A DNA stretch of 64,000 nucleotides from Candidatus Omnitrophota bacterium (GCA_015233495.1 JADFXQ010000003.1:5860-69859), one strand, 5' to 3'; numbered from the stretch's first letter, positions 12,401 through 35,836 are shown. Numbers and translations are program-made. Notes: generated from the letters alone by a model not told the origin.

Positions 12401-12413
12401 GATAAGAATAGTT

Positions 12414-13964: not shown

Positions 13965-13982
13965 CGTTTCAACCCCGTAAGT

Positions 13983-14816: not shown

Positions 14817-14876
14817 GAGTTTTTTAATTATAGACGGGGGGGGTAATTCTATCAAGGCATATTTGCGTCATGGACA

Positions 14877-16253: not shown

Positions 16254-16732
16254 GACTTACCCTTTTTCCGCAGGAGAAATTCTTTATCGCAGGTTAATAA
16301 ATATTTATCCGGGCCAAAATCTTTTATCCTGGCATAACCTGCAGGCGCCCGAAAATCCGGTTGTTGATAAACTAAAATATATTTTTGCCGCAGAGTATTC
16401 TCCCCATAGTTGCGCGGATAAAGATAATACCGGCCTTTATCGCGCAAAAATTCCAACTTATTTTGTGGAGCAATCGGAAGAATGATTTGCAGTGGTTCCC
16501 CAGAAGGTAAAACCCGGTCGCAATATTTCAATATCGGGTAATAATCACGCGTGGAATCATCATAAGCCGCGGAATAAGAACGCAGACGATTCAAACCGGA
16601 ATTTAGGGCAAAGACATAATATTTATTTTCATCCTGCCAAATCCTCACCAATTGTTTGAGCCAAATCCCGCACCAAACAAAACTAAAAAAAACAAATACC
16701 GATATCCGCATTGAATGCCGCGGCAAAAACAT
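16250..16732 (-). CDS. Hypothetical membrane-anchored protein (N-terminal TM, ~130-aa extracytoplasmic domain)
   Basis: Start taken at MFLPRHSMRISVFVFFSFVW (16732), immediately after the rfbB stop. Overlaps the downstream GT-C-like gene start by 4 nt, suggesting translational coupling. Confidence 0.5.
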   Translation of the reverse strand: MFLPRHSMRISVFVFFSFVWCGIWLKQLVRIWQDENKYYVFALNSGLNRLRSYSAAYDDSTRDYYPILKYCDRVLPSGEPLQIILPIAPQNKLEFLRDKGRYYLYPRNYGENTLRQKYILVYQQPDFRAPAGYARIKDFGPDKYLLTCDKEFLLRKKGKS

Positions 16733-16733
16733 T

Positions 16734-18623: not shown

Positions 18624-20597
18624 TTATCCCGTTTGGCTATTATTTTCCTGCAATTTAAATCCGTCAATCAGCGTCTTCGTCTTTTTGGCCAACTCACTTA
18701 AAGACGCTGCGGAAGCCGCTGCCTGTTTGGTTGACGCGGCAAACTGCTTAGTCACCGTATTGATATTCTGCATAGCCTGGACTGTCTGCTCCGAAGCCGT
18801 GCGTTGTTGTTGGGTAGCAATCGAAATTTCTTTTGCCGAACCCGCAGTCTCTTTGATCAGCTCAACCCCCTTGGCGACCCACTTCGTCGAGTCTTCAATG
18901 CCCATAATTGTCGCGTTGGTCTCCATCTGAATTTCCGTGATCAATTGCCGAATTTCTTCCGTCGATTCCGATGACCGTTCGGCCAATTTGCGGACTTCCT
19001 GAGCGACGACCGCGAACCCCCGCCCCGCCTCCCCGGCCCGAGCCGCCTCAATCGCCGCATTCAACGCCAGCAGATTCGTCTGTTCCGCAATATCGTCGAT
19101 CAATTTTGTAATATTCCCGATCGCATGCGATTTTTCACCCAGCACAACAATTTTTTTCGCTGTTGCGTCCACTTTCGTATTGATCTCTAACATTCCCGCT
19201 AAAGTCCGTTCCGCGGCCTTGGCAACATTTTCCGCGTTCTGCGCAATCTGGGTCGCGGTGGCAGCCAATTCTTTCACTGTCGTGGACGCCTGATTCACCG
19301 CCGAAGACTGTTCGGTTGATCCCGACGCCTGCTGGTGAGCGGCAGAACTGATCTGCGCCGAAGCCGTATCCAATGCGAAAGCCCCTTGTTTGACCTGTGA
19401 AATAATCCGTTCGATTTTTCCGACAAAGACATTAAACCAATTGGCCATTTCTTCCATTTCATCGCCGGAGCGAATCGCTAACCGCTTGGTCAAGTCGCCT
19501 TCCCCTTTGGCAATGTCTTTAAGCATATCCACCACCTGCCGGATCGAGGTTGTAATAATACTCACAAATAAATAAACCACCAGCGCAATCCCTCCTATGC
19601 CCAGAATCCCGAGCAAGGCGCTAAGCATCACCATGCTTTTCGTTTTAGAAAAAACCACATCTCCCGGCACCCCCACCACCAAACCCCAAGGAGTCGTGTC
19701 TTTTCCGAAAGAAATCGCGCTCACGAACATATAAAACTTTTTTTGTTGTTTGGCGGCAAACATACTAAAGGAATAGTCTTGATCCGCGCGAATGGCCGCC
19801 AGGATCCCCGCGATATGAGCAGCAGGTATATCTGGATAAATTTCTTTTAAAGGCTTCCCGACATGATTGGCATCCTGATCTCCGACTACGGTTCCGTCAT
19901 TGGCCAACAAAATCGCGAACCCGGCATCATAAGGACGAATTTTCTCGACAATAGATTGCAAACTGTCTAATGCCAAATCCACTCCCGCTACCCCGACGAA
20001 TTTGTCCGCGTTTTTGATCGGCACGACTAAGCTGGTCATTAAAACCGGTTTCCCCATAACCGGATAAAGATAAGGATTGACAACCGTTTCCTTTTGAGTT
20101 TTTTTCGCGATCAAATAATAATCGCCGGCTCCTGCTTTTTCATAATCAACCAACGGCTCAAGTTTTATTTGTCCGGTACCGCGATTCCAATAGGGGATAA
20201 AACGTCCCGTCGCATCCGTTCCTTCTGTGCCGGCAAAAGTGGAATCCCGGTTATCCAGCGCGTTCGGCTCCCAGAGCGTCCAAGCTGCCAACAAATTCTC
20301 ATTACCTTCCAATGTTTTCTTTACGGCAAGATTAAAATAAGGCCGCCGCGCAGCTTCATCAATAGATTGATAACCCGCGAAAATGCGGGCTAAGGCGCGC
20401 GACGAATCAAAGGCATTTTCAATATGAAATTTAATATCATTGCCATACTTTTGCGCCAGCTGCTCCGTTTGGATATAGGCCTCTTTTTGCAGCAGGCTGT
20501 TGGATTTCAAGGTGAGAAAGGTAATCATCAAGAAAAATAAAAGGCTCATGGATAAACAAATGACTAAATTTAATTTTGTCTTGATATCAAGTTTCAT
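18624..20597 (-). CDS. Methyl-accepting chemotaxis protein with periplasmic dCache-type sensor, HAMP and MCP signalling domain
   Basis: N-terminal TM, ~280-aa periplasmic domain, second TM, HAMP, then the highly conserved MCP signalling core ([38 protein letters not shown]). Confidence 0.9.
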
Positions 20598-20640: not shown

Positions 20641-21204
20641 TCATTTCCCGGAATAAACAAAATTGTTCTCCGAGTCCGCCAAGCGCGGCGCTTGCGCGTC
20701 CTTTGACGACAATATTGGCTCAGCGATCGGCCAAACCACATTCACAACCGGATCATTCCAAAAAATACTGCGCTCGCATTCAGGCGCGTATTCATCCGAA
20801 CACATATAAATGATCTGCGCCGCTTCACTAAGCACACAAAAGCCGTGGGCAAATCCCGCCGGAATAAAAAGCATACGTTTATTGTCTTGGGATAAATTCT
20901 GGCCAACCCACTTACCATACGTCGGCGACCCCTGACGGATATCAACGGCCACGTCAAATATTTCCCCCTGCGGCACAAAGATAACTTTCGCCTGCGGTTT
21001 TGGCCGGATCTGATAATGCATGCCGCGCAAGACATTCTTACGGGAAAAAGATTGATTCAGCTGAGCCAATCCCACCTCAATTCCTGCCGCTTTAAAATCC
21101 GAAATCCGATAAAGCTCGGAGAAAAAACCGCGGCTGTCCATAAACTGCTGCAGGGTGACTACAATCACCTCCGGGATCCCGGTTTTCTCAAATACGAATG
21201 CCAT
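20641..21204 (-). CDS. rfbC: dTDP-4-dehydrorhamnose 3,5-epimerase
   Basis: Cupin RmlC signature (RGMHYQ...GEIFDVAVDIR...GFAHGF). Confidence 0.9.
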   Translation of the reverse strand: MAFVFEKTGIPEVIVVTLQQFMDSRGFFSELYRISDFKAAGIEVGLAQLNQSFSRKNVLRGMHYQIRPKPQAKVIFVPQGEIFDVAVDIRQGSPTYGKWVGQNLSQDNKRMLFIPAGFAHGFCVLSEAAQIIYMCSDEYAPECERSIFWNDPVVNVVWPIAEPILSSKDAQAPRLADSENNFVYSGK

Positions 21205-21205: not shown

Positions 21206-22069
21206 TTACTCCTCCGCCAACCTTAATAAATATTCGCCATAGGAAGTCTTGATCTCCCGGCCGAGCGTTTTGAGCTGATCTTTTCCTATATAACCCAACG
21301 CATAGGCGATTTCCTCAACGCACGCCACCTTAAGCCCTTGCCGATCTTCAACTGTTTTGATAAAAACTGCCGCATCAATCAAAGACTCACAAGTGCCGGT
21401 ATCCAACCAAGCGTAACCGCGGCCCAGACGTTCGACGTTCAGACAGCCGCGGCGCAGATATTCATTGTTGATATCCGTGATCTCAATCTCGCCCCGGGCA
21501 GAGGGTTTTACCTGCTTGGCAATATCCACTACCTGATTGTCATAAAAATATAAACCCGTTACTGCCCAATGCGAACACGGCTTTGGCGGTTTTTCGTTAA
21601 TCGCGATGGCCTTGCCGTTGGCATCAAAGGTGACCACGCCATAATGCTGAGGTTCCTTCACATAATAACCGAACACGGTCGCCCCGGACGGCCTTGCCGC
21701 CGCAGTCGAGAGCAATGCGGACATCCCGTGTCCAAAGAAAATATTGTCACCCAGAATCAAAGCCGCGTTATCTGCGCCAATAAAAGCCTCGCCTACCAAG
21801 AACGCGTCTGCTAAACCGCGCGGCTGGGCTTGTTCGGCATAGGAAATATTCAGGCCCAGCCGACTTCCATCCGAAAATAAATTTCTAAACTGCGGCAAAG
21901 CCGCTGGCGTGGAAATGATCAAAATATCCCGAATCCCGGCCAGCATCAACACTGAAAGTGGATAATAAATCATCGGCTTGTCGTAAACCGGCAACAATTG
22001 TTTTGAAACGACCTGAGTGATCGGATACAGCCGGGTAGCTAACCCGCCGGCAAGAATAATCCCTTTCAT
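21206..22069 (-). CDS. rfbA: Glucose-1-phosphate thymidylyltransferase
   Basis: [18 protein letters not shown] nucleotidyltransferase motif. 287 aa RmlA-like. Confidence 0.95.
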
Positions 22070-22079: not shown

Positions 22080-22991
22080 TCATCGCATCCGGCCGTTTTT
22101 AATTATATCCGCAGCCGAACATTTTCTACCCCGAATCCCGTCGAGCAACCCGCGCCGCAATGCCGCGAGTTTATTTTGCTTATCTTGCTCAAAGAAAGCC
22201 ACGATAAAAAATTTATACGCGATATAAGCAATATATACCGTCGAAAGTCCGAATTCCTTAAAAAAGTTTTCTTTAATTATCCAAATCAAATTGCGGGTGA
22301 TCAGATAGCACCGTTTCGCCACATGATTATTGGCCGTGACCTTAATCCCGGTGCCCGGAATTCGATGCGCCGTTTTGCGGCCCAATTCGTGTTCCAGCAT
22401 CGGCCGCGCATACATAAAATTTTTCCGGCCGCAACGACGCACCCTTATACAAAAATCGTGGTCGAACCAATCCAAAAAAAACTCTTCTTGAAACCGGCCG
22501 GCCTCCCGATAGGTTTCGATGGAAAAAAAGCTCCCGGAAGAAATCATCACTTTTACTTCCGCCCACTGATCATCGTATTTTTTGCCGGGGATCTCCGCTC
22601 CCAGTGTCCCGGTATTGACATCCAGATACCGGGCGTTCATGACCCCTACCCGGCATCCGGCCAGTTCGCTTTGTAAAGCAGCCGTATAAATCGCGACTAA
22701 CCCGTCAAATACGCGAGTATCATCGTCCAAAGTCAATATCCATTCATACCCCTGCCCCGCCGCCCAATCAACCCCCTGATTCAAAGCCGCCGCAATCCCC
22801 GCATTCGCCGGATTTTTTATTATATGACAACCCCGAGTGTGCAGCTGCGCTAAAATCCCGGCCGCGCTCTCATCGCCAGTATTGTCAACGACCGCCACTT
22901 TTTTAACCTGGGCCAAAACCGTATCCAAACGTTCCGGCAAAGACGGTTCCGGATAGTAAGTAACAACAACTGCGGCAACAGATGATATCAT
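22080..22991 (-). CDS. Family 2 glycosyltransferase (rhamnosyltransferase-like)
   Basis: VVVTYYPE...[10 protein letters not shown]2 N-terminal motifs and a DxD region. Confidence 0.75.
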
Positions 22992-22995
22992 GCCT

Positions 22996-24726
22996 TCAAC
23001 AACCTCTTTTATATAATTTATTAACTATTTCGCGCCATTTCCAAACGAAAAATCTAATCTGAAAAATATGCCGCCACCCGGCAGAATATAACAAGCGGTG
23101 ATTATTAAGAACGTTTTGAAAAAGATTCATTCTGCTATATTTAGCCATATCATTACGGCTTTGATTCGACGCATGCTTATAATAATTCAAAAGCGCTTCG
23201 GGAATATATTTCCCTTTACTTCCCTTCTCTACCATAGAAAGGTATAAATCCCAATCTTCATAACCTTGACCCATATTGGCCTTATACCCCCCAGCGGACT
23301 CGAAAGCTTCTCTTTTTATCAAAGCGCTGTTATGAATATAATTTTCCCAACGAAGATAAACTCTATTAAATGGCCGTGATTTAAATGTGCCATTTTTAAA
23401 TCCACAATAATTCATATCGGAATAAAAAAAATCACAAGAAGTATTTTGGTAATATGCCTCTAGATACCGTTCAATCGCATCATTTCTTAACGTATCGTCA
23501 GCATCCAAAAAAAGAATAAATTTACCGGTAGAATATCGAAAGCCGTTATTCCGAGCAGCGATAACCCCTTGATTATTTTGCGCCAATAAAGTCACCGAAT
23601 ATTTTTTAATTTCACCAATTGAATCATCTGTCGAGCCGTCATCAACAACAATAATTTCGTGTGGTCGTATCGTCTGTTCCAGCGCGCTAAGAATCGCCCG
23701 CCCAACATAATTTTTATAGTTATAATTAACAATAATCACGCTAACGGTTTCTTTTTTTAACGAAAATATTTTATGATTATAAAACCCTTTTGAAATAATA
23801 CTCCTGCGTTGATCATGCAGATCTCGCCAATGAACGATGATCCAAAGAAAAGCTCGGAATTTTGCGCGGATAATGGTTCGGAAACGCTCATTCATAAAGA
23901 AGCTCAAGCTAGATGCCCCGCAAGCGATAAGACCTTGCGCAAAAAAATCTTTTATAAGACGTTTATAATAGGGTTGATCAAAATTACGAATAGCAAAAAT
24001 AATCCGATTGCGATACATATGATAAAAATAGAAATATGAATCTGGTCCCGCACTTTTCGCAATCTGATGCCAAACACAAGCTTTTGGTTCGTAAACAATT
24101 TTATAGCCGTTTCGTATTGCCCGGGCAAACAAATCCGTTTCTTCATAATAAGCGAAAAAAACCGGCTCCAAGAATCCAATTTCATCAATAAGTTTTCTTT
24201 TTATCAATACAGCGCATCCCGATATGGAATCCGCATCAAATTGTGTTCCCTCTTGATTCATTAACGTCTCGGCGGATCCTGTCCAGGGATTAATAACTTG
24301 ATAGGAATAATACGGATTATTTTTATCAAAAGACGCGTTGTGTGAATCCCAGATATACGCCCGCCCTCCGACGACGCCAATCTTGGGATCTTCTTGCGCC
24401 CGTTTCACCAGCGCGCTCAACCATTGAGGATCAACTACAACATCGTTATTTAATAAAATAATATATTGCCCATGGCAAATTTTTAACCCTTCAATGTTTC
24501 CTCCCGTAAAACCTAAATTTTTTTCATTTTCAATGAATCTAATAGGAAAAAAATACCGGCTTTCCGTGAGGTGGTCTTTAAGAATTCCCGGCGATCCATC
24601 TCTGGAACCATTATCAATTAAAATCACTTCAAAATCTTTGTGCGCCAATAAGGAAAGGGACTGTAAACATTTTTTAGTGTCTTCGTATTTATTCCAATTC
24701 AAAATTATGATTGAACAATACGGCAT
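22996..24726 (-). CDS. Bifunctional glycosyltransferase with two tandem GT2 domains
   Basis: Two separate GT2 cores (SIIILNWNKYEDT...IDNGSRDGS and VSVIIVNYNYKNY...VVDDGSTDDS). Gene is markedly AT-rich relative to its neighbours. Confidence 0.75.
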   Translation of the reverse strand: MPYCSIIILNWNKYEDTKKCLQSLSLLAHKDFEVILIDNGSRDGSPGILKDHLTESRYFFPIRFIENEKNLGFTGGNIEGLKICHGQYIILLNNDVVVDPQWLSALVKRAQEDPKIGVVGGRAYIWDSHNASFDKNNPYYSYQVINPWTGSAETLMNQEGTQFDADSISGCAVLIKRKLIDEIGFLEPVFFAYYEETDLFARAIRNGYKIVYEPKACVWHQIAKSAGPDSYFYFYHMYRNRIIFAIRNFDQPYYKRLIKDFFAQGLIACGASSLSFFMNERFRTIIRAKFRAFLWIIVHWRDLHDQRRSIISKGFYNHKIFSLKKETVSVIIVNYNYKNYVGRAILSALEQTIRPHEIIVVDDGSTDDSIGEIKKYSVTLLAQNNQGVIAARNNGFRYSTGKFILFLDADDTLRNDAIERYLEAYYQNTSCDFFYSDMNYCGFKNGTFKSRPFNRVYLRWENYIHNSALIKREAFESAGGYKANMGQGYEDWDLYLSMVEKGSKGKYIPEALLNYYKHASNQSRNDMAKYSRMNLFQNVLNNHRLLYSAGWRHIFQIRFFVWKWREIVNKLYKRGC

Positions 24727-24768
24727 AATTTTCCCAATAACTTCTTGAAGCTCGGCATCGAATGAGTG

Positions 24769-26151
24769 TTACATAAGTCTATGCTGTATTTTTTCTAATA
24801 TTAATAATTCGCGATGTTTTAACCAATTTTCATCGTCATCCATTTTGACAGAGAATAAACACTTGGTTTGATAACCCTGTGATATCGCAAATTCTTCAAC
24901 ATCCTTTAATATTGGCAAGAATTTTCTTACAGTTTCGAAAACAACAATTTCCGGTTCAAATTTTGAAATGATGGTTTTTATTGATCCCAGCAGAGTTTTA
25001 CTCTCCAATGATTCTTTAGTGATCTCGTATCCTCCATAACCCAAAACCACCAAGATATCCACCTTGGTGAGCGCTTGGATAAAATCATCATCTTTTTTTA
25101 AATAAAAAATTGACCGCTCCGTCAGGGCCGGGAATAAATTGCGGATATCATTGCCAATATATTGCCGATAGGTGTCTGGTATATACTTAAGAAGCGGGGC
25201 GTGTCCACAATCAAGATCAACAATAATTTTTTCTTTTACTTTATCGCGTAAATACCCTGCCGCGAGCCAGACGCGATAATCCATTTTTTCATCGAATAAA
25301 TACGCCCATACATCGTTCTTTCTGCAAATCAAACGGATAAGTTGATGCTGGGTGTTATCTTCCTGAATATATATCGCTTCTTCCTCAACAACCGCAAAAT
25401 ACCTCCCGATCGTTTTTAGAAGATACTTTTTATTAAAAAAATACTGAACATTCGGATCCGGCGTATTAACTTCCTGATTGATACATATTGAATCGCTAAT
25501 ATCCGCCCAGACAACTAAAAGTAAAATTCCCGTCCGTTTCAAAACCTTGTTATATTCAGAAAAAAGTTTTTCCAAATCAATCGGATTAATATGATCAGCC
25601 GTAGATAAATCAATAACACAATCAAAAGCTCCCTTATCAAAATTGAGGCGTCTAATATCGCCGGTTTCAAAACTGCAGGGAATAGTTTTTAACTCGCCTA
25701 TTTTTAACTTGGCCTTATCTTTAACTTGTTCCTGAATTTCAATTGCGTGAATCCTGCCGGCGCGTTTAAGCGAACCAATAATCCCCCCAGCCAGCGGCAA
25801 AGCCTCGGCCTCATTAAACAGATCCGTTTTTAAAACCACTGCTTCCTGGGAACCCAGAGAATCAATCACTCTTTGACTCTCCAATAAATAGTAGAGCCGC
25901 ACTTCCTCAACGGTTTTAAATGGATATTTTATCAGCCATAAATATTTTTCCCGTCGCCAAATCAATTTGCCCAATATTTTATGCTGTTTTTGTAATAAAA
26001 CATATATGCAAAGCAAGAATTTTTTGCCAGTGCTGGCGGAAAAAAAAATTAAAATATGATTTAACAGATTCGCAATAAATTTCCTCTGGCTGGGAGTCAA
26101 AATTTTTATTAAAAATCCTTTAACAGCTCTATATAACCATTTAATCATCAA
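24769..26151 (-). CDS. Putative SAM-dependent methyltransferase-like protein (candidate polysaccharide chain modifier/terminator)
   Basis: Divergent class-I MTase-like motifs (AFDCVIDLS, LKRTGILLLVVW). Located between the GT genes and wzt, as WbdD-type terminators are in ABC-dependent O-antigen loci. AT-rich. Assignment tentative. Confidence 0.35.
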   Translation of the reverse strand: MMIKWLYRAVKGFLIKILTPSQRKFIANLLNHILIFFSASTGKKFLLCIYVLLQKQHKILGKLIWRREKYLWLIKYPFKTVEEVRLYYLLESQRVIDSLGSQEAVVLKTDLFNEAEALPLAGGIIGSLKRAGRIHAIEIQEQVKDKAKLKIGELKTIPCSFETGDIRRLNFDKGAFDCVIDLSTADHINPIDLEKLFSEYNKVLKRTGILLLVVWADISDSICINQEVNTPDPNVQYFFNKKYLLKTIGRYFAVVEEEAIYIQEDNTQHQLIRLICRKNDVWAYLFDEKMDYRVWLAAGYLRDKVKEKIIVDLDCGHAPLLKYIPDTYRQYIGNDIRNLFPALTERSIFYLKKDDDFIQALTKVDILVVLGYGGYEITKESLESKTLLGSIKTIISKFEPEIVVFETVRKFLPILKDVEEFAISQGYQTKCLFSVKMDDDENWLKHRELLILEKIQHRLM

Positions 26152-26175: not shown

Positions 26176-26907
26176 TTATTGGGCCAAATACGAACAAAAG
26201 ATATTCTCCATATCTTCCCCCGCTTGCTCAACCTTCCCATGCCCCATCAGAATCACCTTTGTACACAATTGCTTTAAGATCGGGAGGTCGTGGCTGACCG
26301 TCAACAAAGTCCGGCCTTCTTTGGAAAATTCCAGGAGTTTGGCGCGGGATTGTTTTTGAAACTCGTCGTCTCCTACCGCGATTACCTCGTCCAACAGCAG
26401 AATATCAGCGTCGGCATGCGCGGCCACCGCGAAAGCCAATCTCAAATACATACCGTTGGAATAATATTTTATCGGGGTGTCGATGAACTGGCCGATTCCG
26501 GAAAAATCCACAATGCGGTCGAATTTCTGTTTGATCTCGCTGGTCGTCATACCGATAATAACTCCATTTAGGAAAACATTCTCCCTTCCGGTAAGTTCAG
26601 GATGAAAACCGCTGCCGATCTCAATGATCGAACCCACCCGGCCGCGCAACCTCGCCTCACCGGCAGTCGGCGCGATAATCCGGGCCAGAATCCTGAGCAA
26701 CGTGGTTTTCCCTGAGCCATTCGCGCCGATAATCGCGACGCGCTCGCCGCAAGCAACCTTAAATGTCACCTCGCGCAAAGCCCAAAACGAATCGTCTTGC
26801 CGGGCGCCGGGACGTATGCCCCGCAGCCGGTCCATAAACCGCGAGCGCCGGGAACGATCCGCGAGATGAAAACATTTGCTCAATTGATCAATTTCAATCG
26901 CGTTCAT
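26176..26907 (-). CDS. wzt: Polysaccharide ABC transporter ATP-binding protein (Wzt/TagH-like, no C-terminal carbohydrate-binding domain)
   Basis: Walker A GANGSGKTTLL, ABC signature YSNGMYLRLAFA, Walker B ILLLDE. 243 aa. Confidence 0.85.
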   Translation of the reverse strand: MNAIEIDQLSKCFHLADRSRRSRFMDRLRGIRPGARQDDSFWALREVTFKVACGERVAIIGANGSGKTTLLRILARIIAPTAGEARLRGRVGSIIEIGSGFHPELTGRENVFLNGVIIGMTTSEIKQKFDRIVDFSGIGQFIDTPIKYYSNGMYLRLAFAVAAHADADILLLDEVIAVGDDEFQKQSRAKLLEFSKEGRTLLTVSHDLPILKQLCTKVILMGHGKVEQAGEDMENIFCSYLAQ

Positions 26908-27734
26908 AAAATATCCGCCATGTTCTGATCCTGCTTGTAAAAAAAACAGATACCTGCCGTAAAAATGATGGTCGTCAGGATTAAAGAAATCAGATAAGCA
27001 TCCCAGTGCACCGGGACCTTGCCCGCTAAAAGCGACCAGCGAAACACTTCGATCAATCCGACCATAGGATTAAGATAAAAAACATACCGGATTTCATCCG
27101 GGATCAAACTGGTGCTATATCCAATCGGAGAAACAAAAAAACCGATCTGTATCATAAACGGCACAATAAAAATAACGTCCCGCCAATAAACCGCCAAAAC
27201 GGATAAAAAATAAACCACTCCCAAAGTCAGAATACCCGTATGTAAAATCAAAAAAGGAACCAATAAAATGTGCGCATCCATCCCGACGCCGAAAAATAAA
27301 GCCAAAAAAATAAATGCCAGCCCCGTCAACAAAGCGTCGCTGAGATGGATCAAAATTGATGTGGTCGGAATAAGCAGGCGGGGAAAATATGTGCGGCGCA
27401 GCATCGCGGCATTATCGATTAAAGACGAAGCGCCAACCGCCAGCGTATTGGCAAAAAGCATCCAGGGCAAAAGCGCCGAAAGAACCAGCAATGAATAGGG
27501 CAAGCCGTCGGAAGGAAGCTTCGCAACTTTCCCAAACACAATCACAAACACCACCATGGTTAAAAGCGGACGCAAAACACTCCATCCCAGCCCCAAAGCC
27601 GCGTGTTTATACCTGACCAAGAGATCTCTCCAAGCCAACATGAAAAGAATTTCCCGCCCGGCGCAAGCATCTTTTAAATAAGAACCAAAATGCTTTTTAG
27701 AATTGATGATTGTTTCCGAAACCTTGTTTTGCAT
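26904..27734 (-). CDS. wzm: Polysaccharide ABC transporter permease (ABC-2 type, Wzm-like)
   Basis: Six hydrophobic helices, ABC-2 family pattern. 4-nt overlap with the wzt start. Confidence 0.8.
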   Translation of the reverse strand: MQNKVSETIINSKKHFGSYLKDACAGREILFMLAWRDLLVRYKHAALGLGWSVLRPLLTMVVFVIVFGKVAKLPSDGLPYSLLVLSALLPWMLFANTLAVGASSLIDNAAMLRRTYFPRLLIPTTSILIHLSDALLTGLAFIFLALFFGVGMDAHILLVPFLILHTGILTLGVVYFLSVLAVYWRDVIFIVPFMIQIGFFVSPIGYSTSLIPDEIRYVFYLNPMVGLIEVFRWSLLAGKVPVHWDAYLISLILTTIIFTAGICFFYKQDQNMADIL

Positions 27735-27861: not shown

Positions 27862-28605
27862 CTATTTCCGGATCGTCCAAAAATCCCGCGCCAGGGTTTC
27901 GAGATATTCGAAGGGTATGGTGAAATATCCTTCCCTTCCCCAGGCCGCTCCCCAGGAATTGCGGACCAAGAACCTTTTGGCTTTTTGGTCATAGCCGACC
28001 GCCATCACTGCGTGGCCGCCCAGCAAACGCTCAGTCTTTTTCGGCATCAGGGCTGTCCCGGTACGCGCCACAGCCGGGGAAGCGAAACTTTCATAAACCG
28101 CCATGCCAAAAACAAAAGGAAAACCGTCCGCCAAACAAGCAAACATATCGTCCAGCGAACTTAACCGGTGATAAGAAACGATCTTATGTTGTAAAGCCTG
28201 CCGATAGCACGCGGCAGTGGGTTTGTCGGCAAATTTATCAACCGCATACGGCCAAATTTCTTCATGACAAACGCCTTGTTTTGCCAAAGTCTGAATGCCG
28301 TCGCGCAGCATCGCGCCCGAATCAACCGCCGCGGTTTTATGCAACACTCTTTCATTATAATAAATGAACAGCCGGCTGACATCCGCGTACATTTGATCCG
28401 CGGCATAATCTAAATATTCAATGTTTCCCGCCAAGGCCTGAGCCGTGCAGCTGCCTAATTTACCTTGATCTTCGACGGGAGAACAGCCGAAACGCAAATC
28501 AACCGCCGGCGGCAAACGCAACCGCGGCCGTATCGCTTTATATAAAAAATCCCGACTGTCCGGCACATCCGGCAGCCAACCGTAACGACGTTCAATCATC
28601 CGCAT
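27862..28605 (-). CDS. Papain-like cysteine protease (peptidase family C1A), no signal peptide or prodomain
   Basis: Catalytic triad context matches papain: QGKLGSC (Gln-6-Cys spacing), GGHAVMAVGYD (His) and NSWGAAWGREGYF (Asn). N-terminus MRMIERRYGWLPDVPDSRDF carries an LPxxxD-R-like motif. Strong GGGAGAAAGGGGGAG RBS. Confidence 0.8.
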   Translation of the reverse strand: MRMIERRYGWLPDVPDSRDFLYKAIRPRLRLPPAVDLRFGCSPVEDQGKLGSCTAQALAGNIEYLDYAADQMYADVSRLFIYYNERVLHKTAAVDSGAMLRDGIQTLAKQGVCHEEIWPYAVDKFADKPTAACYRQALQHKIVSYHRLSSLDDMFACLADGFPFVFGMAVYESFASPAVARTGTALMPKKTERLLGGHAVMAVGYDQKAKRFLVRNSWGAAWGREGYFTIPFEYLETLARDFWTIRK

Positions 28606-28872: not shown

Positions 28873-29769
28873 TTATTTTAAGCCATAAACGATCCAACCG
28901 CAGACGCCAACCCAGCAAATTACATTCAATAACAAGGGCCTGTCCGTAACTAATATTTCACCCGGATCACCGCCGCGGTTATGGATGTGAACGAGATAAA
29001 GATAACGAAATATGCCATAGATCACAAACACAACCGTATAGGGCATAAAATGTCCTCCCGGCCGGGCCGCCACCTCTGGTGAAATTGTGTATAAGCCGTA
29101 AAAGACAATCGCCAAGGTCGAACAAATCAATAAAATCTGGTCTAAAAAATACAAGGAATACTCCGCGAGAACGCCGCGGTGTTGACCGGCCTGGTCTTTT
29201 AAAAGTCCCAGTTCATCCCGGCGTTTGGCGAATCCTAAAAACAGCGCCAAAAGAAAAACGCAAAACTGCAGCCATAAAGACGGATAAACTTCCGCCGCGA
29301 ACGCGCCCAGCCAAACCCGGATTTGAAAACCAAAAGCCACGAAAAAGGCGTCGAGAATCACTACGCGCTTGATTAAAAAATTGTAAAAAAAATACAAAAG
29401 GCAATAAATGCCGATCGGGATCAGCGTGCCTGGATCCGCCAAAAAACAAATGCCGCTGCCGCTCAACGCGAGTAAACCCGCCAAGCTAAAAATCAAAGCA
29501 GCTGAAACGTCGTGCCGAGCGATAACCCGCTGGGCTTTTAACGGATGCTTTTTGTCCTGTTCCCGGTCGAGAAAATCATTAAGAACATAACCGCCGCTGC
29601 ACAGCAGACTGAAACCCGCGAAAGCAATGACACAATTTAAAAATCCGCCGCCGTGAAATAACTGCCCGGAAAACAACAAAGGAAAAAAAATAAACGCGTT
29701 TTTCACCCATTGTTTGACCCGCAGCAGGTCGTAAATGAGAATAATTTTTTGCAGCATTTGCCCCTCCAT
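28873..29769 (-). CDS. UbiA-family decaprenyl-phosphate phosphoribosyltransferase homolog (DPPR synthase, Rv3806c-like)
   Basis: RVKQWVKN near the N-terminus, Asp-rich NDFLDREQDKKHPLKAQR motif and C-terminal FRYLYLV...GGDPGEILVTDRPLL region. These parallel mycobacterial UbiA/DPPR synthase (RPRQWVKN, NDVRDVEADREHPTKR, ILRYAVDVDGGLAGEPEDIALRDRVL). Confidence 0.75.
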   Translation of the reverse strand: MEGQMLQKIILIYDLLRVKQWVKNAFIFFPLLFSGQLFHGGGFLNCVIAFAGFSLLCSGGYVLNDFLDREQDKKHPLKAQRVIARHDVSAALIFSLAGLLALSGSGICFLADPGTLIPIGIYCLLYFFYNFLIKRVVILDAFFVAFGFQIRVWLGAFAAEVYPSLWLQFCVFLLALFLGFAKRRDELGLLKDQAGQHRGVLAEYSLYFLDQILLICSTLAIVFYGLYTISPEVAARPGGHFMPYTVVFVIYGIFRYLYLVHIHNRGGDPGEILVTDRPLLLNVICWVGVCGWIVYGLK

Positions 29770-31745
29770 TATGGGATATGGATCCGCCCCAAAACGATCA
29801 TTTTTCCCCGAACCGGTTTCCCATTACGATCCAGTCCTTTTAACACCACGGGAGCGGTTTCATTGTCCTGATAAATGCTCGCCACAATATTATAGCTTCC
29901 CGGGGACATTTCCGGAGGAATAAACAACCAAATTTTTTCTTTGATCCGCTCGCCTTTTTGCCAAAGATTCGTGGCGTAAACGCCATAACCAATAATTTTT
30001 TTTTGATTAAAAATAACCGTGCCGTTTTGGGAAAAACCCAAAGACATCCGATAAACAGAATCCGTGGATTTTTGAGCGTCCCAAACCAATTCCAAACATC
30101 TTCCGGCCGGATCTGCCTTGAAATTTACTCCGGATAAAGAAAAAATCTCCCGCACCCAAACCCTCGACTGATTCGTCCTGTATCCGGGGACCGGAAGAAC
30201 TTCCACCAATTTTGTCCCCGAGCCGTCCTTTCGGAATAACACCAGATTGTCCGCTGCTGCCTCAACCCGCCAATCTGCCATTTCAAAAAACCGCGTCATG
30301 CGCCGGGCAACCGAGCGTCGCGCCGCGGCATCCGCTTTTGCCAATTCTTCCCTCAGCCAAACGCAATTAAAATCAATCAACGCCCATCGCGACCCGGTAA
30401 CCACATCTTGGGGCGTTTGTCCGGAAAATGCGTTCCCTCCCATCCAAATCGTGTGAAAACTGTAAAGATTTTTCCGTAAAGAAAGCTCAGCCAAAAAATC
30501 AAAAGAAGCGGTTACGCCTGCATCGCGCGGAATCTTTTTCACCAATTGCCAACGTACCGGATCAAAATGATCCTCCCAACGCGTCCGCGCTGCAAAGCGG
30601 TCCGAATGGAACCATAGCGACGCGTTCAAAAAACTCATCAACAGAATCAGGCCGATGATCAGCCGGTAAAACCAGTCCTGTACGCGCGGCCGGATTGCGG
30701 CTAATCCATAAACCGCGGCGCAAAAGATATAAACTCCGGAGGTGGCCGCGTAATGATAAAATATGGAACGCATTCTGGGTTCCCCGCTCAATAAATGTTG
30801 TAAAAAAATCGGCAGACCTAAAAATAATTTATCCGGACTTAAAAAAGATAAAAACAACAACGGAGAATCCAATTCTAAGAAGTAATTAAAAAACGCGGCT
30901 GAAAACAACCGCGTCAGATGCGCGCGGATAATCGCGCCATAGGCCCATCCAAAATGATGGTTAGACCCGAGGGCCGGGATCTGATAAAAAGAGGTATAAG
31001 CATTGGCTGTCATAAATCCCAGGTTGTGCCGTAAATAGGGGACAAAGAAAAACATGCTGAACGCAAAAATCCCGCCGCCGATCAACAAAGGCAAGCCAAC
31101 CCATAAAATCTTACTTTCCCTTGTCTGAAACAAGGCGTAGAGTCCAAAACAAGCGATTAACAATGCGATATTTTCCTTAACCAAGGCCGCGAATAAAATG
31201 GATACCGTAAAAAGAAACAGCTTGCGCCGGACAAAAAAATAATAAATCGCCGAAAACAAAAACGGCAAAGCGAGATTTTCAAAATGGAATTCATACAACA
31301 GCATGAAAATGTTGGGCGGATAAAAACAATAAACCAGCATGAGGCCGAACGCGACCGCCGGACCTAATTGACCGCGGGCGATGCGATACAGAATCCCCGC
31401 CGCGGTAAAAAGCGCGAAAATTTTCAGATGGATCAAAGTCAAGGCGTGGGGAAAAATCCAGTAAAGCGGCGTCAAAAGAATCGCGATATACTCGGCGTGA
31501 TTGGTCAAAAAACTCGTGCCAAAAACTGTGGACACGGTTGTCCCGTGCATCAGATTCCACATCACATGATTGTACATGGCCAAATCCCAGTCATAATACC
31601 CAAAAAACGCGTATTTATACTGGAGGACTATCGACCAAAATCCGCACAAAATCAAAACGGTGGCAAACGCCAGCCGGTCAAAAAACGCATCGGATATGCT
31701 CCATTTATTCATAAAAATAATATTCTCCCCCGTATGCCATGGCAC
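29769..31745 (-). CDS. DUF2079-family polytopic membrane protein (putative GT-C-like glycosyltransferase)
   Basis: 658 aa. ~12 TM helices in the N-terminal two thirds and a soluble C-terminal domain. Conserved early motif YYDWDLAMYNHVMWN matching the DUF2079 pattern. Shares one nucleotide with the UbiA start (translational coupling). Confidence 0.6.
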   Translation of the reverse strand: MPWHTGENIIFMNKWSISDAFFDRLAFATVLILCGFWSIVLQYKYAFFGYYDWDLAMYNHVMWNLMHGTTVSTVFGTSFLTNHAEYIAILLTPLYWIFPHALTLIHLKIFALFTAAGILYRIARGQLGPAVAFGLMLVYCFYPPNIFMLLYEFHFENLALPFLFSAIYYFFVRRKLFLFTVSILFAALVKENIALLIACFGLYALFQTRESKILWVGLPLLIGGGIFAFSMFFFVPYLRHNLGFMTANAYTSFYQIPALGSNHHFGWAYGAIIRAHLTRLFSAAFFNYFLELDSPLLFLSFLSPDKLFLGLPIFLQHLLSGEPRMRSIFYHYAATSGVYIFCAAVYGLAAIRPRVQDWFYRLIIGLILLMSFLNASLWFHSDRFAARTRWEDHFDPVRWQLVKKIPRDAGVTASFDFLAELSLRKNLYSFHTIWMGGNAFSGQTPQDVVTGSRWALIDFNCVWLREELAKADAAARRSVARRMTRFFEMADWRVEAAADNLVLFRKDGSGTKLVEVLPVPGYRTNQSRVWVREIFSLSGVNFKADPAGRCLELVWDAQKSTDSVYRMSLGFSQNGTVIFNQKKIIGYGVYATNLWQKGERIKEKIWLFIPPEMSPGSYNIVASIYQDNETAPVVLKGLDRNGKPVRGKMIVLGRIHIP

Positions 31746-31809
31746 AAATCACTTAAATCTTTTCTTTAACGACCTCATCCAAACTCTGTCTGTCGTTAGC
31801 GGACGGCGG

Positions 31810-33015
31810 CTATCGAAATAATCCCTGCAAGGCCTCTTCCAATTTTTTATTTAACTGGCCAAAAACATGATTCCGTTCGACACTGCGGCGGCCTTCCGCG
31901 GCAATACGGGCGGCATCTTGCGGATTCATGATTAAAAAATATATTTGACCGACAAGCGTTTTGACATCTTTGGGCGAATAAAGCAAACCGTTTTCCCGGT
32001 CGCGGATCAAGAGGCGTCCTCCCGGCGAATCCGGGACCAGCGCCGGAATTCCCGCGGCCTGGGCCTCTAAAATAGTAATCCCCGAGGTTACCGGTTTTGC
32101 CGGAGCGATGAACAGATCCGCGGCAGCAAGATATTCCACGACGTCTTCCCGGCTTTTTTCTCCGGCGAAATGAACTGCCGCCGCCAGCCCTAAAGCCTTA
32201 GTTAAAATTTCCCAATCTTCCCGTAATTCTCCATCGCCAATAATCTCGCAATGAAATTCCACCCTTTGATGTTGCCTGCGCAATTGCGCCAAAGCGCGCA
32301 GCACCGGGCCAAAATCAACCTCTTTCGCCAAACGGCTGATCATGACAATATTCAGCGTCGTGCGCCCAGTCACAACCTTGGGACGGCGATCTTTCATAAA
32401 AAGGGGAAGTTTGACGCCGCAGGGCAAGGGCTTGATTTTCTGCGGATCTGCTTCCCAACGCAATAATGTCCACAAAGCCCGCTCGGTGTCCGTCAACAAC
32501 AAGTCTTGCCGCTGGGCCAGGGCACGCGCCTGGCCCGGCGAAACTAAGCGCCGGGTGATTTCGTCTTCATAAATCAAAGTCACAATTTTTTGAACGAAAA
32601 AACAATCCTGGACGAATGCTCCGATTCTTCCCATCTGCGCCGTGTGACAATAAAGCACATCGATATTTTTGCGCGGAAATCCTATGGCCGCGTAAAACAA
32701 GTTGCCGGCCAACGCGTCCTTCCCGTAGCGAAACACATTTAACGCTTTAAAAAAACGATGAATTTCATCCAGATTAAGATAAAGCAGCCACAACGATTTG
32801 AGTGCCCGAATGAGCCAATTACGCGGCACATTGAAACTGCTGACCCGATGATGCAATCCGGATTTTCTCACGTCGGCGTGAGTCGTTTTCCAGAGGCCCG
32901 GACGGAAGCTTACCACATCGACTTCATGGCCACGCTCAATCAAACTGAGCGCTTGGTCTAAGACGCGCGTGTCGGATAAAGAAGGGAATTGCCGGACTAA
33001 AAACACAATACGCAT
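31810..33015 (-). CDS. Family 4 (GT-B) glycosyltransferase
   Basis: C-terminal EX7E-like region (EKSREDVVEYLAAADLFIAPA...GITILEAQAAGIPALV) typical of GT4. Confidence 0.8.
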   Translation of the reverse strand: MRIVFLVRQFPSLSDTRVLDQALSLIERGHEVDVVSFRPGLWKTTHADVRKSGLHHRVSSFNVPRNWLIRALKSLWLLYLNLDEIHRFFKALNVFRYGKDALAGNLFYAAIGFPRKNIDVLYCHTAQMGRIGAFVQDCFFVQKIVTLIYEDEITRRLVSPGQARALAQRQDLLLTDTERALWTLLRWEADPQKIKPLPCGVKLPLFMKDRRPKVVTGRTTLNIVMISRLAKEVDFGPVLRALAQLRRQHQRVEFHCEIIGDGELREDWEILTKALGLAAAVHFAGEKSREDVVEYLAAADLFIAPAKPVTSGITILEAQAAGIPALVPDSPGGRLLIRDRENGLLYSPKDVKTLVGQIYFLIMNPQDAARIAAEGRRSVERNHVFGQLNKKLEEALQGLFR

Positions 33016-33145
33016 AATGTTTCAATATAGCATAAAGCGCTTTTCAGAAATATCACTTTATAAAAAATGAGTTTTTTTTGAAGAATCCCGCCTTTTGATA
33101 TAAAATGTGTTTTAATCCTTAACCATTAAAATTCCGAAAAGGCTT

Positions 33146-35836
33146 ATGTCCCATCCTATTGTCGCATTTTTGCGCCGGTTTTCCTTTCCGATCCGTTTAC
33201 TGTTTTTGCTGGGTCTGGGATTTCTGGTTTACCGCGAGACATTTCGAGGCCAGTTCGTATTTGACGATATTGAATTTATCGTGACCAACCCGTTCATCAA
33301 AAATTTCAGCGCGATCCAAGGCTTTTGGGAGATGTCTTTCCCAAAAACGCGCATCATCACGGTTTATTCCTATGCCCTGAATTATTATCTAAACAAACTC
33401 GATCCATTCGGATATCATCTCTTTAACTATATTGTTCATATTGTCGCGACATTAGCCGTTTGGCGGTTGGCCTTCTTATTAGTTTCCATCCTCCAAACCC
33501 CTCAACCTGTCCCAACACCGATACCCGCGAGTCAAACTTCCAATAACAAACCGCGTCTGAATAATTTAAATAAAGGAAAAACAGCCGCCGCCAAAACAAA
33601 AGCCCAATCTACAACCCAAGCAACCGCCCAAACAACAGCGCCTTTCCGATCTTTCTCTCTATTATCCCTGATCCCCTTTTTCGTCACACTGATCTTTCTT
33701 GTCCATCCGGGTCAAACCGAAGCGGTCACTTATATTACCCAGCGCTTTGAATCCCTGGCCACCATGTTTTATCTTCTCACCCTCTGCTGCTACGTCCAAG
33801 GCCGGATGCCCGCGGTCCAGTTAATCAAACGGATTTTCTTGTTCTCAGGAGCGGCATTTTTTTCGATATGCGCCATTACATCAAAAGAAATCTCCATCAC
33901 CTTGCCGTTGACTATCGTCGCGATTGAGTTGATCTTTTTTAAAGATCTCCGTCGTGTCCGTTTATCTTTATTGCTGATTTTGTTCCTAATCAGCTGTGTT
34001 TTTCTGTTTTTATTCAGCCATATCATCAAGGCCAGCCTGTGGTCACTGTGGACGCACACATTTAATTCTGAATCGCACGACGGAGATATCTTGACCCCGT
34101 ATACCTATATCCTGACCCAAATGCGCGTATTCCTGACGTTTTTCCGGCTTCTCATTTTCCCGGTCAACCAAAATTTGGAATACGATTATCCCATGTCCAA
34201 TTCGCTGCTTGACCCGCCATTAACATTGGTGGGTCTCCTCTTCATCATCGCCTTAGCCGTCATCAGTTGGCTCGCGCGCAAAAAATATCCTCTCATCAGT
34301 TTTGGAATCGCTTGGATACTGATCACGTTTTCCGCCAATCTAGTGCCGCGGGCCAATGTCATTTTTGAGCACAAACTTTATCTTATGTGTTTCGGATTTG
34401 CTCTGGCAGGAATATCCTTGTTGAATGAACTCATCAAAAACCGGAAAATTTTGATTACTTTGCTGATCGGCATTATTTTAATTTTTTCTCTGACCACTTT
34501 TCATCGCAACAAGGTTTGGCTCACGGAGCGAGCCCTGTGGGAAGACGAAGTCAAAAAATCGCCAAACAAAGCCCGAGTTCACGCTAACATGGGAAAAGTC
34601 TATACTGATTTAAAAATTATTGACAAGGCCCTGTTTGAACTGGGACGCGCAATTGAACTTAAAGCCGACGATTTTAAATCCTACAGCAACCGGGGCGCGG
34701 CCTATTATTCGATCGGCGATTTTGATCACGCCTTAGAAAATTATAATAAAGCGATCGAAATCAAACCCGGTTATTTCGGAGTATACGTCAATCGGGCCTT
34801 AATTTATTTTGAAATGCGCCAATTTGACATGGCCCTGGCAAACTTGAACACCGCCATTCTCCTTGACCCGAAATTTCAGTATGGCTACATTCACCGCGGC
34901 CGTTTGCTTAACGAACTCGGTCGTTATCAAGAGGCGCTGCGCGATTTTGATCAAGCTCTCAAAATCGCCCCCGGCGATGTCGAGGCGCTGGTCGGCCGCG
35001 CGGTCAATTATTTTTTCCTCGGTCAAACTGAAAAAGCGATTCAAGATTTTAACCTGGCCCAGCAATTCAAACCGCAAGAACCTTTGGTCTTTATCAACCG
35101 CGGTTTTTGTTATTTCAAGATCGGCCAGCCCGATAAGGCGATTGCCGATTTCAACGCTGCCATCCAAATTCAACCGGGCAATGGCGAAGCCTACAACAAA
35201 CGAGGCATGGCCTATCACGCCAAAGGCGCCTTCGATAAAGCCTTTGCTGATTTCAACCAAGCGATCGCTCTCGACCCGCACAATGTCACAGCGCTAAATA
35301 ACCGGGCATCGATTTATTTTCAGCGCGGCCAGACGGATGCGGCGCTCGCTGACTGCGACCAAGCGATTGCCCTGAACCCGCATATGGCCATGGTTTATAA
35401 TAATCGGGGCATCATTTATCTGGGCAAAAAAATGGTAGAGCAAGCCAAAGCGGATTTTGATAAATCTTTGGAGTTAGACCCAAACTATATTGAATCTTAT
35501 CTAAAACGCGGCTTTATCTACGCTTCGCAAAACAATTACACCCAGGCCTTAGCAGATTTCTCGTCGATCATTGCCCGCGAACCTACTCATTTTGCCGCGC
35601 TTTATAACCGCGGGGTGATCGAGGCCATAGCGGGCAATCAAACCGCGGCGATCGTTGATTTCACTCAGTCGTTAAAATCGAATCCCAACTATGCGATGGC
35701 CTTCTGGGGGCGAGCTAACTCTTACGCGGCGATTGGCAAATTCTCCGAGGCTTTAGCCGACGCGCAAGCCGCGCAATCGCTTGGCCAAGAAGTCCCCGCC
35801 GAATTTATCGCGAATATGAAAAGCAAGATCAAGTAA
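33146..35836 (+). CDS. TMTC-like protein: N-terminal DUF1736/PMT-like polytopic membrane domain fused to ~12 TPR repeats
   Basis: N-terminal FRGQFVFDDIEFIVTNPFIKN motif (TMTC/DUF1736 DD motif), then ~9 TM helices, a Q/T/A-rich linker and a long array of 34-aa TPR repeats (ADDFKSYSNRGAAYYSIGDFDHALENYNKAIEIKP ...). Confidence 0.7.
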   Translation: MSHPIVAFLRRFSFPIRLLFLLGLGFLVYRETFRGQFVFDDIEFIVTNPFIKNFSAIQGFWEMSFPKTRIITVYSYALNYYLNKLDPFGYHLFNYIVHIVATLAVWRLAFLLVSILQTPQPVPTPIPASQTSNNKPRLNNLNKGKTAAAKTKAQSTTQATAQTTAPFRSFSLLSLIPFFVTLIFLVHPGQTEAVTYITQRFESLATMFYLLTLCCYVQGRMPAVQLIKRIFLFSGAAFFSICAITSKEISITLPLTIVAIELIFFKDLRRVRLSLLLILFLISCVFLFLFSHIIKASLWSLWTHTFNSESHDGDILTPYTYILTQMRVFLTFFRLLIFPVNQNLEYDYPMSNSLLDPPLTLVGLLFIIALAVISWLARKKYPLISFGIAWILITFSANLVPRANVIFEHKLYLMCFGFALAGISLLNELIKNRKILITLLIGIILIFSLTTFHRNKVWLTERALWEDEVKKSPNKARVHANMGKVYTDLKIIDKALFELGRAIELKADDFKSYSNRGAAYYSIGDFDHALENYNKAIEIKPGYFGVYVNRALIYFEMRQFDMALANLNTAILLDPKFQYGYIHRGRLLNELGRYQEALRDFDQALKIAPGDVEALVGRAVNYFFLGQTEKAIQDFNLAQQFKPQEPLVFINRGFCYFKIGQPDKAIADFNAAIQIQPGNGEAYNKRGMAYHAKGAFDKAFADFNQAIALDPHNVTALNNRASIYFQRGQTDAALADCDQAIALNPHMAMVYNNRGIIYLGKKMVEQAKADFDKSLELDPNYIESYLKRGFIYASQNNYTQALADFSSIIAREPTHFAALYNRGVIEAIAGNQTAAIVDFTQSLKSNPNYAMAFWGRANSYAAIGKFSEALADAQAAQSLGQEVPAEFIANMKSKIK

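Follow-up and report, generated by a model that had tools for sequence, protein, structure and literature searches.

A gene for a polyprenyl-phosphate phosphoribosyltransferase-type protein paired with a DUF2079 gene in an Omnitrophota glycan locus: a predicted extracytoplasmic pentofuranosylation system

Introduction

What would a homologue of the first enzyme of the mycobacterial decaprenyl-phospho-arabinose pathway be doing in a rhamnan-type glycan locus of Candidatus Omnitrophota? The question is raised by 64,000 nucleotides of a metagenome-assembled genome (GCA_015233495.1, JADFXQ010000003.1:5860-69859), referred to here as the window, in which a gene of the UbiA superfamily lies immediately downstream of a gene for a DUF2079 membrane protein. 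A first-pass annotation, made from the DNA alone, proposed that the UbiA protein makes a lipid-linked pentofuranose that is used on the periplasmic face by glycosyltransferases (GTs) of the GT-C type. On balance, we favor a similar answer, in which a polyprenyl-phosphate 5-phosphoribosyltransferase (PPPRS) makes a polyprenyl-phospho-ribofuranose donor and the DUF2079 protein is a GT-C that uses it on a periplasmic glycan of the lipopolysaccharide (LPS) or rhamnan type. The earlier observation was largely correct, and the interpretation was right on the mechanism and wrong on its novelty and on the role given to a tetratricopeptide repeat (TPR) protein.

The supposition that such a module was uncharacterized outside Actinobacteria is contradicted by biochemical work on PPPRS, flippase, and GT-C systems of Citrobacter youngae. 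Kelly, Duong, Nothof, Lowary, and Whitfield (PNAS 2024) described three-component extracytoplasmic pentofuranosylation in Gram-negative bacteria and called it widespread (PMC11127046). In C. youngae O1/O2, ORF15, a UbiA-type PPPRS fused to a HAD phosphoribose phosphatase, converts phosphoribosyl pyrophosphate (PRPP) to polyprenyl-phospho-ribofuranose; ORF14, a MATE protein, is the predicted flippase; and ORF12, a 652-amino-acid GT-C that founded CAZy family GT136 and has a carbohydrate-binding module at residues 503-652, places α-ribofuranose (Ribf) on an ABC-transporter-dependent rhamnose/mannose O-antigen in the periplasm (PMC11127046). Auxiliary epimerases yield xylofuranose (Xylf) or arabinofuranose (Araf), and ORF12-type GT-Cs take Ribf or Xylf donors (PMC11127046). 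A PPPRS has also been proposed to supply the Araf donor for pilin glycosylation in Pseudomonas aeruginosa, and both mycobacteria and Citrobacter take the 5-phosphate off the donor before using it (PMC11127046). The GT-C genes of such systems are mostly annotated as hypothetical, and the CDD matches of ORF12 are EpsG-like/alkaline-phosphatase-like, not DUF2079 (PMC11127046).

Results

The UbiA protein

The two genes of the pair are as follows.

28873..29769, minus strand: predicted UbiA-superfamily polyprenyl-phosphate 5-phosphoribosyltransferase of the PPPRS or decaprenyl-phospho-ribose synthase (DPPRS) type (Pfam UbiA, 81 bits; probable start at 29757).
29769..31745, minus strand: DUF2079 (PF09852) polytopic membrane protein, 658 amino acids (Pfam, E of 5e-39; GT-C fold in the structure model).

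The three motifs on which the UbiA protein had been likened to Rv3806c of Mycobacterium tuberculosis are all present in its translation and align with that protein (RVKQWVKN with RPRQWVKN, NDFLDREQDKKHP with NDVRDVEADREHP, and FRYLYL..GGDPGEIL with LRYAVDVDGGLAGEPEDIAL). The similarity runs from end to end, with 28% identity over 276 aligned positions. A search of the PDB with the 298-residue UbiA sequence matched only 8J8J and 8J8K, which are both M. tuberculosis Rv3806c (E of 8e-23, residues 14-293 of the query against 19-298 of the chain), and no other UbiA-family structure was matched at an E value of ≤0.01. In NCBIfam, three DPPRS models ranked first, with 225, 157, and 118 bits, while models of the MenA, UbiA, CyoE, and GGGP types scored at most 35 bits. 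NCBI names an identical protein simply "UbiA prenyltransferase family protein," and several homologues with 55 to 59% identity are named DPPRS.

Structural work on Rv3806c assigned roles to 11 residues: R22, K87, R90, K143, and Y138 are ligands of the pyrophosphate, K28, Y70, and Y157 of the ribose 5-phosphate, and N73 and D77 of Mg2+, and Q135 contacts the ribose O3 (PMC10994848). When these residues, together with D74 and D81, were checked in a MAFFT alignment, 11 of the 13 positions were identical in the window protein, and the same 11 were kept in 38 to 40 of 40 sampled Omnitrophota homologues. R22, K28, Y70, N73, D77, K87, R90, Y138, and K143 of Rv3806c correspond to R17, K23, Y61, N64, D68, K78, R81, Y129, and K134, respectively. 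Y157 is replaced by F, as it is in every nonmycobacterial sequence compared, including those of Chondrinema, Lactococcus, and Haloterrigena. The best models, the PDB match, and the residue conservation all place the protein with DPPRS enzymes rather than with the MenA and UbiA group or other quinone and heme prenyltransferases, as first proposed; by all of the sequence tests applied, it is a PPPRS-type phosphoribosyltransferase.

The DUF2079 protein

The structure model of the DUF2079 protein has a confident GT-C fold, as the first-pass annotation had expected. A transmembrane (TM) domain at about residues 17-390 is followed by a periplasmic α/β region (about 395-510) and a C-terminal β-sandwich (about 514-657), which in the model resembles the O-antigen-binding domain of Wzt. 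The GT-C enzymes set beside it were ALG12, ALG9, PglB, and STT3B, together with AftB (12.8), ArnT (12.4), AftA (11.2), AftD (10.2), and PimE (8.8). The catalytic acidic residues of GT-C enzymes sit right after TM1, and a nearly invariant YYDWD motif (D52 and D54) is found right after TM1 of the DUF2079 protein, where the first periplasmic loop begins. Invariance is complete at E191 and Y332 and nearly so at E152-F153. Judged by the model, the multi-TM GT-C fold and the acidic residues in the post-TM1 periplasmic loop fit the protein into the GT-C superfamily.

The family is large, its profile matching 26,754 cluster representatives (50% identity) at an E value of ≤1e-3 and 16,482 at ≤1e-10. 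A sequence search of the PDB gave no meaningful match, NCBIfam has no DUF2079 model, and no paper mentioning DUF2079 or PF09852 was found in the literature searched.

Conservation of the gene pair

A scan of a genome collection with DUF2079 peptide patterns gave 36 species-level loci, 28 of which were informative in that they had enough downstream sequence; because the patterns were built from 12 close sequences, the scan leans towards Omnitrophota. By record title, 20 loci are labeled Candidatus Omnitrophota/Omnitrophica, 15 "uncultured Planctomycetales," and 1 "uncultured bacterium," and among these last 16, all 11 that have an upstream flank show Omnitrophota synteny. The first-pass annotation had staked its proposal in part on the two genes staying together in other genomes, and they do: UbiA lies directly downstream of DUF2079, on the same strand, in 20 of the 28 informative loci, with two tandem DUF2079 copies preceding it in several. 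The gene order is fixed, FtsH-FolP-DacA-PdxJ-AcpS-Nnr-QueH-(GT9)-DUF2079(x1-2)-UbiA, and is followed by variable glycan genes for Wzx or Wzm/Wzt, GT2 and GT4 enzymes, and aminosugar and deoxysugar pathways. A gene of the GT9 (heptosyltransferase) family accompanies the pair in 14 of the 36 loci, and a MOP/MATE-like flippase gene, which could be an ordinary Wzx, is found two genes downstream in 11.

In five of the informative loci in which UbiA is missing, a short (about 500 amino acids) or full-length DUF2079 protein adjoins one or two polytopic proteins of about 800 amino acids, encoded at the following positions.

L029:5353-7791, minus strand: polytopic neighbor of about 800 amino acids.
L032:5749-8001: the same.
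L033:10820-15620: the same.
L035:5563-7968: the same.
L036:9483-11888: the same.

Each of these proteins has at least 10 hydrophobic segments and a C-terminal part that is large and periplasmic, and most close with a TM segment. No kinship to UbiA or DUF2079 was detectable in them, and the L029 member, the sole one scanned, had no Pfam match.

At the junction of the pair in the window, the 1-nt overlap described earlier is present as a TAATG, but the true start of UbiA is probably later, and the two genes would then not overlap. Between the first UbiA ATG and another ATG, four codons further on, there is a GGAGG Shine-Dalgarno sequence, and the NCBI model of an identical protein (294 amino acids) begins at the latter ATG; the start is therefore probably at 29757, and the two genes would be 9 nt apart. 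The packing is tight all the same, and in related loci the two genes either overlap by 4 nt or are separated by 11 to 26 nt.

PPPRS genes in other lineages

PPPRS genes also lie beside GT-C genes in Bacteroidota and haloarchaea. A Chondrinema locus combines DPPRS with an FAD oxidoreductase and SDR pair and GT39 genes, and a Lactococcus plasmid encodes a hypothetical 533-amino-acid protein followed by DPPRS, HAD, and GtrA proteins. In Burkholderia multivorans, a HAD-UbiA fusion is present, and the GT-C gene was not recognized among GC-rich overlapping open reading frames (ORFs). A contig labeled "Bacteriophage sp." from human feces (L049; MT837543.1) encodes, at 898-5419, a UbiA-type PPPRS, a HAD phosphatase, an SMR/EamA transporter, an SDR epimerase, and a 565-amino-acid DUF6044 protein (Pfam, E of 2e-103). 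The makeup of this five-gene cassette points to DUF6044 as a further GT-C-like protein that partners PPPRS, perhaps on a mobile element; an hhalign comparison of DUF2079 with DUF6044 gave a probability of 0.45%. A six-frame search with the DUF2079 profile gave only E values of >0.8 in five other PPPRS loci (Chondrinema, Lactococcus, Haloterrigena, the phage-like contig, and the ORF15-type locus of Burkholderia), three of which have GT39, DUF2723, or DUF6044 genes, annotated or detected. DUF2079 is therefore one of several GT-C families able to partner PPPRS.

The surrounding glycan locus

The other genes of the locus are listed here.

31810..33015, minus strand: GT4 cytoplasmic glycosyltransferase, which opens the minus-strand run (Pfam Glycos_transf_1, E of 5e-29).
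33146..35836, plus strand: 896-amino-acid protein with a GT-C fold and a TPR array, divergent from the GT4 gene (Pfam TPR; structure model).
27862..28605, minus strand: papain-like (C1) cysteine peptidase, between UbiA and wzm (Pfam Peptidase_C1, E of 1.6e-15).
26904-27734, minus strand: Wzm, of an ABC transporter for a polyprenyl-linked glycan (Pfam ABC2_membrane; best NCBIfam matches of the Wzm type).
26176-26907, minus strand: Wzt (Pfam ABC_tran; best NCBIfam matches of the Wzt type).
24769-26151, minus strand: methyltransferase, 460 amino acids, low G+C.
22996-24726, minus strand: two-domain GT2 (Pfam/NCBIfam).
22080-22991, minus strand: GT2 rhamnosyltransferase (Pfam/NCBIfam).
21206-22069, minus strand: RmlA, dTDP-L-rhamnose pathway.
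20641-21204, minus strand: RmlC, dTDP-L-rhamnose pathway.
18624-20597, minus strand: methyl-accepting chemotaxis protein (dCache-HAMP-MCPsignal), which splits the rml genes between rmlC and rmlD.
17740-18600, minus strand: RmlD, dTDP-L-rhamnose pathway.
16734-17726, minus strand: RmlB, dTDP-L-rhamnose pathway.
14877-16253, minus strand: third GT-C-like membrane protein, with a weak PMT_2 match (Pfam, 29.2 bits against a cutoff of 26.1; E of 1.3e-6) and eight hydrophobic segments.

The four ORFs first described (28873-29769, 29769-31745, and 31810-33015 on the minus strand and 33146-35836 on the plus strand) all exist with these boundaries, and Pfam upheld the assignment of three of them to UbiA, DUF2079, and GT4. 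The same-strand genes further downstream, for Wzm, Wzt, the GT2 enzymes, RmlA, RmlC, RmlD, RmlB, and the GT-C-like protein, are also as originally listed, with the methyltransferase in addition. Wzt of the window has no C-terminal carbohydrate-binding domain. The methyltransferase and the two GT2 proteins (22080..26151) are candidate enzymes of backbone synthesis and termination. The G+C content falls to 0.375 at 24000-26000, over the methyltransferase gene, from about 0.47 to 0.50 on the flanks, pointing to horizontal acquisition of part of the locus. Upstream of the locus lie housekeeping genes for QueH, Nnr, PdxJ, DacA, FolP, FtsH, and TilS. In a promoter and terminator scan, counts were close to those expected from shuffled sequence, giving no usable signal.

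The GT4 and TPR genes fill the slot between QueH and DUF2079 in this window. No GT4 gene was found next to the pair among the 36 related loci (weak matches, far from the pair, occur in 2), and neither the TPR protein nor the PMT_2-like protein was found beside UbiA in any of them. GT4 and the TPR protein were therefore rejected as parts of the conserved module. The TPR protein had been described as TMTC-like, with DUF1736 and TPR domains. Its divergent orientation and TPR array are as described, and its GT-C domain is seen in the structure model only, where a membrane domain from residue 1 to about 470, with an invariant FVFDD motif, precedes a long periplasmic TPR array. On this model, the architecture is TMTC-like. 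The DUF1736 assignment did not hold: the N-terminal 485 residues match no Pfam family (DUF1736 or PMT included) even at an E value of ≤10, and precomputed Pfam lists show DUF1736 (PF08409) in none of 120 homologues. A PDB search by sequence with the N-terminal domain gave no meaningful match either. The protein belongs to a large bacterial family whose members are mostly labeled just "TPR repeat protein." It shares with the eukaryotic TMTC1-4 proteins (GT105) a GT-C domain followed by a lumenal or periplasmic TPR array and an acidic DD after TM1; unlike them, it has no DUF1736 match in Pfam, and nothing points to a protein acceptor. The hint of protein targets that had been drawn from it thus finds no backing, and the TPR protein is probably outside the conserved module.

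Several further observations concern neighboring genes. Pfam gave no match for an ORF of 222 codons at 16250-16918 (minus strand), whose 5' part is shared with the RmlB ORF and whose last 4 nt overlap the PMT_2-like gene. Translation probably starts at an internal Met, giving a product with a single N-terminal TM segment followed by a periplasmic domain of about 150 amino acids; this product is a possible partner of the PMT_2-like GT-C. The glycan locus is directly followed by a polyphosphate cluster (8881-14855, minus strand) encoding HD/Ppx domain III and CHAD proteins, PPK1 (678 amino acids), Ppx/GppA (516 amino acids), and PPK2 (290 amino acids). A small GT2 (249 amino acids) adjoining gpsA at 3357-4106 (minus strand), distant from the main locus, could be a polyprenyl-phosphate sugar synthase that feeds one of the other GT-C proteins. 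An ankyrin-repeat protein (279 amino acids) is encoded at 58008-58847 (minus strand); such proteins are unusual in free-living bacteria, and its presence fits the proposed host-associated lifestyle of Omnitrophota.

Discussion

Most likely, the pair belongs to an Omnitrophota version of three-component pentofuranosylation that has another GT-C family at its center. UbiA, as its homology and conserved residues suggest, would move ribose-5-phosphate from PRPP to polyprenyl phosphate at the cytoplasmic face. A phosphatase and a flippase encoded away from the pair, where there is no local candidate for either, would then yield periplasmic polyprenyl-phospho-Ribf. Finally, DUF2079 would transfer Ribf to a surface glycan, a step suggested by its fold, the conserved pairing, and the precedent of ORF12. 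Its β-sandwich, which resembles the carbohydrate-binding domain of Wzt, may hold the polysaccharide acceptor, most plausibly the LPS-type glycan of the adjacent variable locus (an O-antigen-like rhamnan) or the LPS core, since the association with GT9 points to these acceptors. What we infer is that UbiA and DUF2079 are related as maker and user of the donor, that the sugar is ribose and not one of its epimers, and which glycan is the acceptor.

The resemblance to C. youngae is close. In both cases, a PPPRS-type gene lies in a glycan-biosynthesis locus and adjoins a gene for a GT-C of about 650 amino acids with a C-terminal, β-rich, carbohydrate-binding-like domain (503-652 in ORF12 and about 514-657 here); both loci encode Wzm/Wzt, a rhamnose-containing backbone, and a methyltransferase, and without DprE1/DprE2, ribofuranose is the default sugar in each. 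The differences are that the GT-C here belongs to DUF2079, ORF12 being apparently set apart by its reported CDD matches; that the PPPRS of the window has no fused or adjacent HAD phosphatase and the window no MATE or SMR flippase; and that the DUF2079-UbiA pair occupies a conserved chromosomal site across the phylum, whereas the C. youngae genes are a serotype-specific add-on.

The mycobacterial pathway (Rv3806c, Rv3807c, DprE1/DprE2, and the Emb and Aft enzymes) has a homologous first enzyme and likewise provides a lipid-linked pentofuranose to GT-C enzymes outside the cytoplasm, as is predicted here. The rv3806c gene also adjoins a GT-C gene, aftB (Rv3805c). In contrast to mycobacteria, no DprE1/DprE2 or PAP2 phosphatase was found here, DUF2079 lies outside the Emb and Aft families by sequence, the locus, in what we assume to be a diderm, is LPS-like (Wzm/Wzt in the window and GT9 in related loci), and the likely product is a side-chain decoration rather than an arabinan polymer. 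The third parallel is D-arabinofuranosylation of the P. aeruginosa type IV pilin, whose GT-C is TfpW. There, too, a PPPRS homologue feeds a lipid-linked pentofuranose to a periplasmic GT-C (PMC11127046); that system has DprE1/DprE2 homologues and a pilin acceptor, whereas no epimerase was found here and nothing ties the pair to a protein acceptor.

Several points weigh against the proposed system. The best model, NF008977 (DPPRS), scored 225.1 bits, just under its equivalog cutoff of 234, and Q135 of Rv3806c, the ribose-O3 contact, is replaced by Y in the window protein and by H in most relatives. The scan of the window covered ORFs of at least 150 amino acids, i.e., nearly all; no 5'-phosphatase (HAD/PRP or PAP2) was found in the 64 kb, and no flippase (MATE, SMR, GtrA, or EamA) or small multi-TM ORF was found in the window locus, which leaves two of the three components that define such a system without a local candidate. 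DUF2079 stands without a UbiA neighbor in 8 of the 28 informative loci, and the neighbors of a distant DUF2079 gene encode a YdjC protein, a methyltransferase, and a GT2; DUF2079 as a family is thus not bound to a PPPRS donor, and its subfamilies probably have PPPRS as one donor synthase among several.

These same loci lend something to the view that the pairing is syntenic and not functional, which we nevertheless consider unlikely. UbiA would then supply a donor to the TPR-fused GT-C or the PMT_2-like protein, possibly for protein targets, and DUF2079 would use another lipid-linked sugar or act as a polymerase or ligase. The window does hold three proteins with a GT-C or GT-C-like fold (DUF2079, TPR-fused, and PMT_2-like), and the TPR fusion resembles the architecture of the eukaryotic TMTC protein O-mannosyltransferases. 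However, the TPR GT-C, GT4, and PMT_2-like genes are beside UbiA in none of the 36 loci, while DUF2079 is directly upstream of it in 20; the short gaps and overlaps at the junction indicate cotranslation; and the TPR protein has no DUF1736 signature.

Donor synthesis by UbiA for use by DUF2079 would also be compatible with a sugar other than ribose, and a module that delivers Araf or Xylf, after epimerization by DprE1/DprE2-like or SDR enzymes from another part of the genome (compare mycobacteria, P. aeruginosa, and C. youngae O2), is conceivable, if distinctly unlikely. The visible DNA is 64 kb of a metagenome-assembled genome, the Chondrinema PPPRS loci and the phage-like cassette contain, respectively, the FAD oxidoreductase and SDR pair and the SDR epimerase described above, an SDR gene lies directly upstream of DUF2079 in two related loci (L012 and L016), and the donor range of ORF12-type enzymes already includes Xylf. 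Against this, Pfam revealed no FAD-oxidase/SDR pair among the scanned ORFs of the window, in agreement with the first-pass annotation, a tblastn search (E of ≤1e-3) with the Chondrinema DprE1/DprE2-like proteins gave no match in the window or in those related Omnitrophota loci that were tested, and the SDR matches of the window belong to the rhamnose pathway (RmlB and RmlD). Because no such gene was seen in the window or the loci tested, ribose is the reasonable default, as was first suggested.

Since no phosphatase is linked to the pair, the transferred group might even be ribose-5-phosphate. DUF2079 would in that case use polyprenyl-phospho-ribose-5-phosphate directly and add a phosphoribosyl group, or else its paralogues would polymerize a pentofuranan; both versions strike us as improbable. 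The tandem DUF2079 copies of several loci would suit them, as would the sporadic occurrence of HAD genes. A HAD-like gene follows UbiA in L001 and L014 only (Pfam, E of 0.008), and HAD genes 36 to 39% identical to the phosphoribose-phosphatase-like HAD of the phage cassette are found at L001:19187-19374, L002:15662-15849, and L033:15650-16225. In L001 and L002, the glycan cluster opens with DUF2079x2-UbiA and has the HAD gene at its opposite end, and the HAD gene of L033 has no UbiA within 8 kb. A 5-phosphorylated lipid donor, however, is without precedent for flipping or use, the 5-phosphate is stripped before use in mycobacteria and Citrobacter (PMC11127046), and phosphatase genes can lie far from a locus.

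That UbiA is instead an ordinary aromatic or heme prenyltransferase of the MenA, UbiA, or CyoE type with no role in glycan synthesis has next to no chance of being right: some database sources do call its homologues "4-hydroxybenzoate polyprenyltransferase," but the NCBIfam scores, the PDB search, and the conserved residues, including the phosphoribose-specific K28 and Y70, effectively refute it, and the glycan-locus context of the gene argues against it as well.

The PPPRS, flippase, and GT-C mechanism itself is already known, having been published and predicted to be widespread (PMC11127046), and nothing in it is overturned. What is new here is the GT-C family (DUF2079), the phylum, the fixed chromosomal site of the pair, and the lack of linked phosphatase, flippase, and epimerase genes. 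More tentatively, DUF2079 may be an unrecognized family of polyprenyl-phospho-pentofuranose-dependent GT-C enzymes that has a conserved envelope function in many Omnitrophota, adding ribofuranose to the LPS core or O-antigen; we regard this broader proposal as possible but doubtful. If it is true, DUF2079 would merit a new CAZy family, and confirmation of the activity would add an enzyme to the glycoengineering toolbox.

In summary, the lipid-linked pentofuranose pathway extends, by these predictions, to one more GT-C family and to one more phylum, Omnitrophota, most of which is uncultured, and a large DUF family (the 16,482 cluster representatives counted above) gains a testable donor hypothesis. 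If confirmed, it would show how the surface of Omnitrophota, which are small and apparently host-associated cells, is decorated, which bears on their interactions with partners and phages.

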